From the NCBI GenBank assembly GCA_041640075.1, contig JBEQAY010000001.1:3754-67753 (forward strand): a stretch of 64,000 nt of DNA, read 5' to 3'. A program made the position numbers. Positions 60,001 to 64,000 of this stretch are shown in pieces. The stretch is from Candidatus Nanohaloarchaea archaeon (GTDB lineage: Archaea > Nanohalarchaeota > Nanosalinia > Nanosalinales > Nanosalinaceae). Within the stretch, counting starts at the first letter, position 1. Each line of letters starts with the position of its first letter.

Positions 60001-63000
60001 TCCTGGATAGGTGCGTAGATAAGTTCTTTCTCCGGAATTTTCTCAACAATCTCAGGATAGTTTTTCTCGAACTTTCTCAGGTACTCTGTACAGGTCTGGT
60101 GGCCAAGTCCTCTGGAGCCGGAGTGGATCATGACTACGACCTGATCCTCTTCAAGTCCGTAAGCTTCTGCCTTGCCTTCGTTGAAGATTTCTCCTACCCT
60201 CTGGATCTCCAGGAAGTGGTTTCCTGATCCCAGGCTTCCTACCTGTTTTACTCCTCTCTTCTTCGCTTTCTCAGGGACTTTTTCAGGATTACCGGGCAGC
60301 CGACCGTTTTCCTCGCATCTCTTCAGATCTGATACCTTAGCATGACCGTTTTCAAGCATCCATTCAGCTCCTTTCTCAAGAATTTCAATTAAATCTCCCT
60401 CATCCGTGTCAATGTATCCTCCTTTACCTAGTCCGCACGGTATCTTGTTGAACATTATATTTGCAAGCTGTTCCTCTCTACCTTTGACATCTTCATACTT
60501 TAAACTTGTTTTCAGGACTCTGACCCCGCAGTTTATATCGTAACCGATTCCACCAGGGCTAATAACTCCTTCTTCTGCGTCTATCGCGGCGACTCCTCCT
60601 ATCGGGAATCCGTATCCCTGGTGGCCGTCAGGCATCACGATCGAGTGCTTCTGGATACCTGGAAGGGTTGCGACATTCTTTATCTGCTCCAGTGTATCGT
60701 CTCCTTTGATCTCCTCCAGCAGTTCCTCGTTTGCGTAGATTCTGGCAGGTTTCTCCATTTCTCCTTCCTGGGGGATCTCGTAGATGTTTTCAGAAATTTT
60801 GTTGAGCTCCATAGAAACTTTTTTGCCGGGAATTTTTACAAAAGCAACAGTTCCTATCCCAGGAAAATACCGGTAAGCACATCAGTGAGAAAACCTATAT
60901 TCGTGGAGATCTTCTCTACGAAAGTTTTTTCGGGCTGACAGGTCGGCTGACCGATCGCTCCAGGTGGAAGATAAGGTTTCATCTCCCCACAGCATGATTC
61001 GAACTCTGTGAAGACGGCTTCACCTTCATCCCTGCACGAGATCTCTTTCACGTGTTCCTGTCCACATTCACCTTCAAGAAAACTTCCGGCCTCACAGCTC
61101 TCGTTTTCGTTAAACTGGCAGACACCTTCGCTCTGAGAACCATTTTCCACATGCGTGTAGTTGTATCCCATGTGTTCGCAGTAGTTTGGCGCTGGAGGCA
61201 TCGCTGCAAGAGCTGTTGAAGTCAAAAAAATTGCCAGCAAGACAGGTAAAACCTTTGATTTCACGTAGGTGATTACCTTTTAGTTACTGAAAAATGTTTT
61301 CTATATATCGATTACGGCCTGTAGAACCCATGCACCTTCATCTCTGTCATATTCTACCTCCATCTCGCTGTAGGTCGGTCCTTTAACATCCATTTTATGG
61401 ACTTCAGATGTTATCTTGTCGACCTTGATGTCTGCTGTAATGCGCCAGCCGTTTTCAAGATCCTCAAGCTCCAGTTCATCGGCATATGCTACAACCACAT
61501 TCTCTGTATCCTGCAGGAAGATGAGTTCATCCAGAAAATCGAATAGAAGTGGTTCAAGCCCTTCTGATGCCACTTTAATAGTGTGGACCTGCTTTCCTGA
61601 TTCTCCTCCGACTATATCGGAGAAAGCATCAACTACTTCCTTGAAGGCTTCTTCCTTGGTATCTGCTGCTACCCTGAATTTTGCGTCAGCTGGATGGTCT
61701 TTTATCTCGTACGTCATGATCTTTCAGTCTTCAAATCGTTCAGAAAACTTTTTCTCAAGGATTTTATCCAGATATTCCTCCTGTTCACTTATCGACATAT
61801 CTGTATTATCAACTAAAACATCGTATATATCTAAATCTCCAGTATCTATTTTGTAGTAGTCTTCATAACGTCTTGAATTCTCTTCATCCCTTTCTTTAGT
61901 TTCTTCAAGCGCTTGATCATAACCTATATCCTCTCTTGCCGCTATCCTTTTCGCTCTCTCCTCTAAATCAGCTTTAACATAGATCCTCAGATCAGAGTAG
62001 TCTCCCAGCACCCATGAAGATATACGGGAGTCTATAACACAGTTATTCTCCAGTCCACGCTCCAGTGTACGTCTATCTACCTCCAAGTCAACCTGTTTAT
62101 CTGCTTTCTTCGCTAGCTCGACGTGTGAAATCCCTCTTTCCTCTGCAATACTGTAGAATACGTCGCTTGCGGAGAAATGATATATACCAAGCTTTGAAGC
62201 TATATAATCGGCTATTGTTCCCTTACCTGCACCTGAAGGTCCGTCGACTGTTATCACTACGTCCGAATTTTTTTCGTGGTCTCCCTGGAATTCCTCGATA
62301 TAGCTTCCCATAATCTTTGAATTATGCTCAAGTTATTTTATTGGTTCTCGGGAAAAACTGGTTTTTCAGAAATCTAGCTCTTCGACATCTTTAACTGCCG
62401 GCAGAAAATTCCTCCGCAACTCCTCAGAATCCTCTGCTTCAAGCTCATCCAGATCCCAGAACTTTGCATCAACAGCGTCAGAACCAGGTTTAACTCCTCC
62501 AGAAACCTTTGAAGCCTCTATCTGGAAAATATTGGCCAGCAAGTACTGGTCAGGGAAGCGCTCAAAATTCATATCACGCACGAAACTCAGATCACCCGGC
62601 TCAACTGTTAAACCTGTCTCCTCCCCCAGTTCACGCACAGCAGCTTGACTTGCATTCTCCTCCAGCTCCAGAAAACCTGCAGGTAGACTCCATTTACCTT
62701 TACCAGGCTCAATCCCACGCTTCACCAGCAGCACTCTTCCCTCCTCGTCACGGACAAGCACAGCTGCGACAGGTGAAGGATTCCTCCATATAAAACGCTC
62801 ACAGGAGTTACAGTAAAGTCTCTCACGTCCCTCATTCACTTTCTCTGTCAAGCCGTCGCCGCAGTAAGGGCAGTGACTCGGAACCATCTCCGGAGGCATA
62901 AAACAGAACACCTGTCGGAAATTCAAGTAACTACCGAAAAATTATCCACAAAACCAGAAAAATTCTGAAAGCCATGTTTCACATGGCTTCTTACGTGTGA

Positions 63001-64000
63001 ACCGAGCGTAACCAGTTCGCGGAGCGCGGGATTTGAACCCGCGTTACCACCGTGACAGGGTGGTATGATGGGCCAGACTACACTAGCTCCGCAGTACAAC
63101 AATGGGTTTACTGGGAATTTTTTTAAACTAAAAGGGAAGGATAAGTTTGAGTCCTATAACCAGTATGAGGAGTAAAGTGATTTTCTCCAGTTTATCTCGC
63201 GGTAGTCTGTGGGATATTATCTGTCCGGTTTTGACGGAGATCAATGTTGGTATGGCTAGGATTAGTGAGAGAATGATGTCCTGGTTTCCTGAGTAGATGC
63301 CTGTTGCCTGTGCAAGTATTATCCTGTAGAGCGAGAGTATGAGGATTATGGCGGCCAGTGTTCCTGTAAATTTTTGTCTTGAAAGTTCCCGGGATTTCAG
63401 GTATGTGATTATCGGGACTCCAATGTTTGATGCTCCGTAGATGACGCCTGAGGTTGTTCCTATGAAAGGATCCCAGGTTCTGAAGCAGATCTCCTTTATT
63501 TTGCCGATTTTCTGTTCTATGAAACTTATTTTCGAGGTAGCGTAGAGTACTGCTATCAACCCTACTGTTACTTGAAGTGTTCTTGATGGAATTGCCGATA
63601 TCATTAGCATTCCAAGTGTTGTTCCTGCTGCAAGAGAAAGTATGTACCCTGAAAAATTTTTTACGCAGTCTTTGAGTTCTTCTTTGTCTGTTTCAAGTAT
63701 GAGTTCCAGGTTTCCTGCTATAAGTGGTATTATCATTATTGCTACTGCCTGCTGTGCTGGCATGAAGATCGTGAGGAGTGAGGTTGAGATGAGTGCATAG
63801 CCGAATCCTGTGAGTCCTTTGACCAGGCCTCCTAGAATTATTATCGTGGTGGCTGGGATCAGTAAGTCCATGTAAATTTATACTGGGTTTCTCTAGTTTG
63901 TATAAAGTTCACTTCAAAAACGTGTTTGTGTATGGGAGCTGAAAATTTTGTTGTAATCGGTGACGGTAATGCAGGTGCGACGGCCGCTGAAACCTTGAGA

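Follow-up and report, generated by a model that had tools for sequence, protein, structure and literature searches.

Transposed BHB tRNA introns are described from the Thermoproteales (Fujishima et al. 2010, as summarized in PMC4090602 and bioRxiv 10.64898/2026.10.13.758758). Halophilic archaea harbor other small mobile sequences: the PATEs, SMRs and MITEs of Haloquadratum walsbyi are short, palindrome-bearing repeats that lack a transposase and nest in one another. In the account of PMC3119063, IS605-type elements, the source of the PATEs, leave no target duplication; SMRs make no duplication either and have inverted termini, as do MITEs. Long direct repeats of variable length (8-514 bp) accompany the transposase-coding elements IS1634 and IS1549 and, as of PMC2266710, were without a mechanistic model. 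Small pseudoknotted motifs are also described at comparable positions, as theta (minimal HDV-like) ribozymes starting a few bases from phage tRNA 3' ends (PMC10879173) and as R2 ribozymes at the 5' end of a mobile element (PMC11331408).

The element described here resembles each of these systems, as far as those sources portray them, and matches none. Its common part is a 29-nt structured 5' end that, in contrast to the Thermoproteales introns, is found beyond introns as well, on either strand, in protein genes and next to long target duplications. It is short, palindrome-bearing, nesting and free of a transposase like the H. walsbyi repeats, but only one of its ends is conserved, its termini are not inverted, and its duplications are long and vary in length. 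The duplications recall IS1634 and IS1549; however, the element has neither an ORF nor a terminal inverted repeat, and it folds as a single strand. Unlike the theta and R2 ribozymes, it folds as one hairpin, joined at most by a brief pairing between loop and linker, and has no HDV domain order. We conclude that it is probably a non-autonomous copy-and-paste mobile element of DPANN archaea, non-coding and roughly 50-140 nt long. A small mobile element is a better reading than the Nanohaloarchaea-specific RNA class proposed by the first-pass annotation.

One copy lies behind tRNA-Asp(GUC) in the window, the whole 64,000-nt stretch of DNA that was analyzed, where we distinguish the following features:

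63018..63092, minus strand: tRNA-Asp(GUC) gene, host of the copy (Rfam RF00005, 58.6 bits; ARAGORN)
63013..63018, minus strand: 5' arm of stem P1, model positions 2-7 (all 6 pairs covary; 94.6% of cells are paired across 108 copies)
63005..63012, minus strand: conserved 8-nt loop GUUACGCU (exact in 91/108 relatives' copies)
62999..63004, minus strand: 3' arm of stem P1, positions 16-21 (fold and covariation)
62991..62998, minus strand: conserved linker RYACGCAA, with U27 in this copy (alignment of copies)
62968..62990, minus strand: P2 hairpin (fold; sequence freely swapped among copies)
62940..62967, minus strand: small third hairpin and U-rich trailer (sequence reading)
62366..62899, minus strand: Nudix hydrolase gene downstream, outside the element (Pfam PF00293)

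The two hairpins are the fold of 62960-63019(-), with a minimum free energy of -19.7 kcal/mol and a z score of -3.68. This interval overlaps the last 2 nt of the tRNA (Rfam match 63018-63092), and the element's stem opens with the discriminator, G73 at 63018. That base corresponds to model position 2, which is the 5' boundary of the element in cleanly duplicated copies elsewhere. The linker of this copy has U instead of C at position 27. No recognizable duplicate of the tRNA-Asp 3' end follows the copy. It may be an older insertion whose first bases rebuild the gene end.

All ten places listed earlier for this genome carry the sequence in the contexts given, and the eight strong copies score E<=1.2e-13 with our model R1. 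Because R1 was built from those same copies, we looked to a descriptor scan for independent support, and it gave 5 matches in the genome and 0 in each of 3 shuffled genomes. The earlier tally of 8-10 copies falls short of the full membership. A further copy follows tRNA-Arg(UCG) and is cut by a contig end, and a long form, with hairpins inserted in loop and linker, follows tRNA-Ile(UAU); by eye, the weak match on contig C2 is the 3' half of this form. Divergent members, also assigned by eye, lie at tRNA genes for His, Gly, Leu(GAG), Leu(UAG) and Ser(GCU). As previously stated, no Rfam family matches the motif: at E<=10 only tRNA-overlapping matches appear over it, and at E<=1 ten further loci yield only tRNAs and one sub-threshold mascRNA match.

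Conservation is confined to the 29-nt core, made up of a 6-bp stem, the loop and the linker. A hairpin begins at most 6 nt from the core in 251/261 copies, with its sequence freely exchanged; this second hairpin is cargo that varies from copy to copy. In long forms, further hairpins are inserted at A11/C12 of the loop. The first-pass annotation had described two hairpins, an invariant G[UUACGC]U loop and a UUCCA tail. Both hairpins do fold in the tRNA-Asp copy, but the second hairpin and the tail are not conserved outside this lineage; the loop, largely invariant, is 8 nt long and closed by a variable pair. Positions 1-2 of the core vary freely among copies, and about 14 unpaired or pseudoknot bases are near-invariant.

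Within P1, G-U cells outnumber A-C cells by 42 to 3 in 84 Nanosalinales copies and by 41 to 1 in 97 copies from a GTDB scan, an excess that indicates a structured module folding as a single strand. Judging by the alignment, linker positions 26-27 can pair with loop positions 13-14 in a putative 2-bp pseudoknot. The pairs concerned, 13-27 (101/106) and 14-26 (106/107), are invariant and hence uninformative as covariation for a loop-linker helix, and the pairs flanking them are seen in no more than 4-6 of about 106 copies, where a few double changes occur. A possible base triple is suggested by position 23, which tracks pair 5-18. A pseudoknot and a triple are more typical of functional RNA and would count against a mobile DNA repeat. 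Overall, the covariation fits two separate hairpins, not the HDV domain order with its catalytic C in J4/2.

With R1 we found 185 matches in 42/69 other genomes, at most 12 per genome, and the element is present in 43/70 genomes of the order Nanosalinales. The 27/70 genomes lacking a match include 9/28 near-complete ones, although divergent variants may be missed. The element also occurs in records titled Woesearchaeota, Nanoarchaeia and Iainarchaeum, and is therefore not specific to Nanohaloarchaeota. Strict scans returned no bacterial matches and no Halobacteria records. The bacterial matches of a loose GTDB pattern, mostly with 2-4 of 6 stem pairs formed, were treated as chance. Among viruses, the first pattern gave 0 matches and a looser one 120 loci, of which 1 had a paired stem and looked like a chance match.

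The tight tie to tRNA genes seen earlier is borne out: by eye, 96/113 relatives' copies are tied to them, and they account for about 85% of Nanosalinales copies. Copies occupy the edges of tRNA and protein genes on both strands and form BHB introns on the sense strand; others are inserted in protein genes, or antisense in tRNA genes, with long target duplications. All intron copies are in the tRNA's sense, in agreement with the earlier reading, and in every intron copy and every 3' copy it is the folding strand that is transcribed. After a T-loop in sense come 48/277 copies, most of them introns as judged by eye.

Orthologous loci are filled, empty or marked by remnants, and none is fixed. We scored occupancy as counts of filled and empty sites, unpolarized on a tree for gain or loss, and used the Nudix hydrolase gene as a synteny marker for filled and empty tRNA-Asp sites within the genus. 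The tRNA-Asp 3' end is filled in 3 of 43 recovered loci (50 examined), and 9-nt remnants stand at this end in genomes G037 and G058. The RNR stop site is filled in 3/30 cases and the PolD DP1 stop site in 4/30. Among 30 tRNA-Lys(CUU) genes, 12 are intronless, 16 have introns (4 flagged with the motif) and 2 are unresolved; the corresponding numbers for 30 tRNA-Arg(GCG) genes are 14, 14 (3 flagged) and 2. Patchy loci and the conservation of 29 nt only speak against a stable two-hairpin RNA class.

A sign of mobility is a direct repeat of 14-96 bp that flanks 68/277 copies, against 0/277 in the null; about 6-8 of these 68 are repeats of the element itself or of a neighboring tRNA. An earlier scan had given 18/118 at a score of at least 11 (null maximum 11) and a second one 24/88 (null 0/264). 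The remaining 209/277 copies, including the one at tRNA-Asp, have no duplication at threshold. The repeated sequence is the host sequence 5' of the element. It is specific to each locus, with no core sequence common to different loci. Several duplications are perfect over 20-90 bp, among them one of 90 bp at locus L508, and tandem arrays occur at L512 and L727. Many 3' duplicates begin in the T-loop, and the same orthologous gene starts are struck in several genomes. At L621, a protein gene contains an insert that includes a tRNA fragment along with a second core, indicating that flanks are transduced.

These repeats also delimit the element. Clean copies begin at the first stem base, that is, at the base of a helix. 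Among 44 near-perfect duplications, 9 end at position 1, 11 at positions 2-4 and 20 at 1-6 positions before the stem. The last 6 nt of the duplications differ in 84/246 cells, a figure biased by the exclusion of those 6 nt from the anchor. Outside tRNA ends, microhomology at the 5' junction amounts to a 1-3 nt overlap in 5/14 clean copies (by eye), not clearly above chance.

The first-pass annotation proposed that tRNA processing cuts the element out with an exact 5' end. RNase Z would not free it intact. Only about a third of copies start, as theta ribozymes do, at most 5 nt from a tRNA 3' end. In 24 3' copies, tRNA nucleotide 72 falls at model position -1 to 3; the discriminator lies within P1 in 22/24, placing the predicted cut inside the stem. 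Splicing fits the proposal in part. Introns with the element, which occupies their 5' end, are found at three tRNA positions, and 18/39 anticodon introns have their splice cut precisely at the first base of the element. The 4-bp BHB central helix has at least 3 of 4 pairs in 35/39 intron copies, and its outer helix is built from the 5' arm of P1 in 33/39, leaving the stem predicted open in those pre-tRNAs. P1 and the BHB are mutually exclusive, and P1 is in the minimum-energy fold of only 4/39 free introns when folded without pseudoknots. A stem that RNase Z would cut, and that in most introns is predicted to open for the BHB, argues against an excised functional RNA. As the first-pass annotation itself had conceded, antisense copies are poorly explained by RNA processing; nor does tRNA processing account for insertions in protein genes. 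The mobility that it kept as an option is well supported by the patchy loci and the duplications.

We searched for a mobilizing enzyme. A reverse transcriptase (RT) is present in 7/70 genomes of the order, five of them beside or like DGR Avd loci, and no motif lies beside 8 RT loci at E<0.39. The Y1 transposase (PF01797) occurs in 4/70 genomes, with no convincing core beside the 4 loci read. No RT, Y1, TnpB or tyrosine recombinase (PF00589) was found in the element's own genome, which is 89% complete. Among five genomes with fresh copies, 1/5 has an RT, 3/5 a Y1 and 0/5 a Cas1; many of the genomes searched for an RT are incomplete. No enzyme co-occurs with the element, which counts against mobility. 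The distribution of the element makes a linked transposase less likely than a housekeeping or visiting enzyme.

The selfish-repeat option fits best, though not in the MITE or IS200/IS605 form suggested earlier. In 44 delimited elements read by eye, the 3' ends lack conservation and none of them is an inverted copy of the 5' end, and the duplications lack the short, fixed length that a MITE's partner transposase sets (DDE families lay outside the search). A PATE or other IS200/IS605 derivative would cause no target duplication and would rely on an available Y1 transposase with related end palindromes; Y1 is as sparse as given above. REPs and REPINs are tetranucleotide-tagged palindromes clustered beside a RAYT gene; here core starts vary, and the own genome has no Y1-family gene. 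Non-LTR retroelements and SINEs combine variable-length target duplications, a partner RT, and a conserved 3' end or tail on the RNA strand. The duplications are present, the RT is as sparse as described and unlinked to the motif, and conservation sits at the 5' end of the folding strand, the 3' ends being variable. An integrase-type element at tRNA genes and a dif/Xer site were set aside with PF00589 not found in the own genome, the one genome searched for it; in addition, the repeats share no common att core, and the stem is asymmetric about the 28-mer. The hairpin is too short for an attC-like site (by eye). Hammerhead, twister, pistol, hatchet, preQ1, C/D and H/ACA were dropped on comparison by eye with their consensus features. 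A terminator role is at odds with copies inside introns and between two PolD genes. None of the tested prokaryotic repeat classes accommodates an element with one exact end, a single-strand fold, duplications of 14-96 bp and no inverted termini, and we found no published description of the element.

How might such an element move? The core could serve as a handle for an enzyme acting in trans, which would join the 5' end of the single-stranded element to the 3' end at a chromosomal nick; DNA synthesis would then resume behind the nick and re-copy the target, resolving the far end. The flush positions would mainly reflect survivorship of insertions into gene bodies. There would be three ways for a copy to persist. 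The bases with which it begins may restore the end of the gene (C72/N73, a stop codon or, on the opposite strand, G1); the duplication may restore the gene downstream (D-loop, antisense T-arm, gene starts); or the copy may turn into a BHB intron, its 3' end pairing with the 5' arm of the stem. Survivorship leaves the tRNA share in Nanosalinales unexplained, so some targeting is needed. As intermediates, RNA (an excised intron or trailer) and single-stranded DNA are nearly equally likely; the sense orientation of all intron copies tips the balance slightly towards RNA. Tentatively, the element could be a prokaryotic SINE-like one without a gene of its own: excised tRNA intron or trailer RNA, bearing the 29-nt pseudoknot tag, would attach through its 5' end to broken chromosomal DNA, and host enzymes would copy it.

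Other explanations account for parts of the evidence. The 5' end exactly at a helix base, duplications and 3' ends of variable length, the transcribed folding strand, the near-invariant unpaired bases and the R2 precedent, as presented in PMC11331408, would suit a ribozyme-led retro-element of the R2 5' HDV-like type, whose core self-cleaves at the base of P1, leaves the host transcript and reinserts by target-primed reverse transcription. We consider this unlikely, since positions 1-2 at the putative cut vary freely, HDV/theta architecture and Rfam ribozyme matches are absent, most carriers lack an RT, the stem is predicted open in most pre-tRNAs with intron copies, and self-cleavage in an intron or at N72/N73 would often harm the tRNA. 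It is quite improbable that the element is a host-serving small RNA that EndA and RNase Z set free. Such an RNA might be a pseudoknot that binds a ligand or protein and, in competition with the BHB or the acceptor stem, tunes how the tRNA matures. The strongly conserved sequence and the covariation seen in many genera, splice cuts at the element start, the exclusivity of P1 and BHB, and the presence of EndA, RtcB and archease genes agree with such a role; the genomes without a match, the lack of any fixed locus, RNase Z cuts inside P1, antisense and protein-gene copies with duplications, and the rarity of P1 in free-intron folds do not. Finally, the element might travel as an integrative mini-cassette with a piece of a gene end from another strain and recombine there, so that the "duplication" is supplied by the element, as in tRNA-targeting integrative elements. 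Recurrent hits at orthologous gene starts and duplicates beginning in the T-loop are in keeping with this, as are 24 protein-coding repeat pairs in which 36/75 differences are synonymous (approximate dN/dS 0.26). However, these pairs are not independent, and the synonymous excess drops to p=0.05-0.34 when the test takes account of transition bias and of change in the functional copy; with repeats that share no core sequence, several of them perfect, and no tyrosine recombinase found in the own genome, we regard the cassette as very improbable.

The small mobile element that we favor bears on tRNA gene evolution. How archaeal tRNA introns arrive is stated as an open question in bioRxiv 10.64898/2026.10.13.758758 and PMC4090602. 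An element that sits in introns and outside them with datable footprints makes intron gain studiable with a defined sequence, boundaries and young insertions. It is active in genomes of about 1 Mb, mostly without the transposase and RT families searched, and accounts for part of the tRNA mis-annotation in DPANN genomes. If the SINE-like RNA reading were true, tRNA genes without an intron would acquire a new BHB intron, and other sites would acquire long target duplications; this would be a concrete route by which archaeal tRNA introns are born. A gene-less jumping element that often ends as a tRNA intron is thus a testable lead on intron origin.

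The copy in the window and the gene cluster beside it are as follows.

62960-63019, minus strand: 60 bases that form two hairpins on folding (z -3.68) and share the last two bases of tRNA-Asp
59391-62311, minus strand: RtcB, archease and a kinase-like gene (the first two confirmed by Pfam), lying some 700 bases away from the copy at tRNA-Asp, probably by coincidence

The motif was found at all ten places listed in the first-pass annotation, and a scan of the motif loci bore out its statement that Rfam holds no family for it. R1, a covariance model built from the eight strong copies of this genome, gave 194 matches in 43 of the 70 Nanosalinales genomes, 185 of them in relatives.

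The element begins with a 29-nt core (stem P1, an 8-nt loop and the linker RYACGCAA), which is followed by a variable hairpin, P2. When 108 relatives' copies were aligned to the model, double changes appeared at all six P1 pairs and at six P2 pairs, in an alignment biased towards the model. The cells of P1 and P2 are paired in 94.5% of cases, with shuffled and slid controls far below; the loop sequence is exact in 91 of the 108. In two sets, G-U cells exceed A-C cells by 42 to 3 and by 41 to 1, almost all of them at a single pair, indicating that the folding strand is the strand as written. Position 23 varies together with pair 5-18, being C where the pair is C-G and U where it is U-A or A-U; either a base triple or common descent may account for this. 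Loop bases G13-C14 are complementary to linker bases G26-C27; because both pairs are invariant and few variants lengthen this helix, a loop-linker pseudoknot is something we can only infer.

The picture of a stable two-hairpin motif did not hold outside this lineage, where P2 is swapped for many unrelated hairpins. A hairpin begins within 6 nt of the core in 251 of 261 copies, a set whose conservation counts are partly circular since many loci were retrieved by exact patterns. Long forms carry hairpins inserted within the loop or linker. Because P2 is exchangeable and such long forms occur, the unit is the core plus cargo.

A loose exact pattern matched at least 119 loci in GTDB genomes; among the matches listed, nearly all archaeal ones form five or six of the six stem pairs, and most bacterial ones form two to four. 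Two strict patterns, listed in full, gave 41 and 79 loci, none with a bacterial or halobacterial record title. Their titles name Nanohaloarchaea and relatives, other archaea and Methanosarcinales, the last so labeled by record title only, with four of these genomes measuring 1.0-1.6 Mb. They also name Woesearchaeota, Nanoarchaeia/Nanoarchaeota and one Iainarchaeum, so that a class specific to Nanohaloarchaea was too narrow a reading. Metagenomes added 117 loci, and the patterns found no convincing copy in the viral contigs searched.

In one Woesearchaeota record (loci L256, L259, L272, L277, L279, L292 and L347) the core is enclosed in a MITE-like carrier, a bigger repeat that has many copies, measures about 250 bases and ends in long inverted sequences; L301, L352 and L360 are similar. 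The 1-Mb genome G071 has 16 exact core matches, many at contig ends, and cores nested directly behind the loop of another core (L250, L262, L361).

Position of the best 113 of the 185 R1 matches in relatives; classes assigned by eye
Anticodon introns: 43 of 113, all sense
tRNA 3' end or its duplicate: 35 of 113
tRNA 5' end: 17 of 113, antisense
D-loop with duplication: 1 of 113
Protein-gene edges: 11 of 113
Elsewhere: 6 of 113

In a wider set, 48 of 277 copies lie in sense orientation behind the T-loop. Most T-loop copies inspected, and some D-loop copies, look like introns with the BHB fold of archaeal splice sites. The first base is C in 196 of 262 copies and the second A in 210. The same orthologous protein-gene starts are occupied in different records (L541, L684, L699, L727 and L730; L556, L621 and L725; L583 and L614), and at several of them the adjoining target bases resemble the element's first 5-7 bases.

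Most orthologous sites lack the element. The tRNA-Asp 3' end is filled at 3 of 43 sites recovered from 50 loci examined, the RNR site at 3 of 30 and the PolD site at 4 of 30. Two relatives, G037 and G058, retain 9-base remnants at the tRNA-Asp 3' end, the latter with the same downstream Nudix gene as the window copy, and G043 has an antisense copy at the tRNA-Asp 5' end. Relatives differ at tRNA-Lys(CUU) and tRNA-Arg(GCG): some have no intron, some have the element as an intron, and in others the intron belongs to a different hairpin family. At Arg(GCG), three states occur within genus g13.

Three sets of copies that overlap one another yielded direct repeats flanking 18 of 118, 24 of 88 and 68 of 277, with essentially none in shuffles; of the 68, about 6-8 come from the element repeating itself or from a neighboring tRNA. 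This excess and the empty sites support the mobility that the first-pass annotation had raised as an option. The repeats span 14-96 bp, one being perfect over 90 bp. Of 44 near-perfect cases, 9 have an upstream repeat that ends at position 1, 11 one that ends at positions 2-4, and 4, which are tandem units, one that ends at position 5; in the other 20 it stops before reaching the stem. The elements' 3' ends have nothing in common. Mismatches concentrate in the last 6 bases, by a test biased by design. Protein-coding repeat pairs differ synonymously at 36 of 75 differences, an excess not robust to transition bias. No duplicate of host sequence is recognizable at the window copy.

Several neighboring observations concern duplications and introns. 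In L007, L068 and L095 the left junction recurs in inverted form just ahead of the direct repeat, a pattern resembling fold-back synthesis. This genome also has a second small-insert family: behind several tRNA genes lie 40-60 bases that close with a TTCG hairpin, and after them a duplicate of the tRNA's 3' end (approximately C3:38519-38620, C6:3880-3982, C7:18900-18987 and C39:5769-5860). The doubled tRNA-His at C11:19751-20052, on either side of a run of N and at a motif-bearing site, is probably an assembly artefact. ARAGORN mislabels three intron-bearing tRNAs, by eye Cys(GCA) at C13:3486-3609, Thr(CGU) at C25:11765-11907 and Thr(UGU) at C12:8157-8309. Eight relatives (L174-L181) have a tRNA-Asp intron of 26-33 bases without the motif; most relatives have no intron there. 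Another two-hairpin module family occupies the same anticodon introns of tRNA-Lys and tRNA-Arg in other genomes (L746, L747, L753, L768, L781-L783, L790, L799).

In many tRNA genes the element forms the 5' portion of a BHB intron. Among 39 anticodon introns tested, the BHB central helix has at least three of four pairs in 35, and N37 lies directly 5' of the first stem base in 18. Predicted pre-tRNA folds make the outer BHB helix by opening P1 in 33 of 39, and P1 is predicted to form in only 4 of 39 free introns. The proposal that tRNA processing gives the RNA an exact 5' end thus fares unevenly: the splice site coincides with the element start in those 18 introns, but in 22 of 24 copies at tRNA 3' ends P1 includes the discriminator, and RNase Z would therefore cut into the stem.

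How might such copies arise? The folded core would fix the 5' joint of an insertion, and the other end would be completed by repair synthesis re-copying the target; through survivorship, the copies that remain would then be those at gene edges and those serving as introns. The starting C-A could replace C72-A73 of a tRNA or, on the opposite strand, G1, which would account for the flush antisense copies that had seemed difficult. We consider it probable that these parts hold jointly for a non-autonomous element. An RNA intermediate is favored by the sense-only introns and by the splice site that matches the element start, and we lean slightly towards it; the scarcity of reverse transcriptases leans the other way. 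No partner enzyme emerged from searches for reverse transcriptase and Y1 across the order, for TnpB and PF00589 in this genome, and for Cas1 in five genomes with fresh copies. Most reverse transcriptases of the order are DGR-like, and for one of them a neighboring bAvd gene was confirmed.

DGR-like cassettes, an Avd-like gene followed by a reverse transcriptase, occur in Nanosalinales genomes at L362, L365 and L369, with Pfam confirming bAvd and reverse transcriptase at L362. L490 (genome G073, which has the perfect 90-bp duplication) is a strong reverse transcriptase match, group II intron-like by eye.

The element is outside every family tested, with REP/RAYT, SINEs, attC, dif and small ribozymes other than theta compared by their general features. 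We found no description of it in the full-text literature searched, which takes in few subscription papers; the repeat tables of PMC3119063 and the supplements of bioRxiv 10.64898/2026.10.13.758758 could bear on novelty. We conclude that the element is real, mobile and DPANN-wide. It behaves as a short insertion element that is non-autonomous and, from intron states compared unpolarised, likely creates BHB introns.
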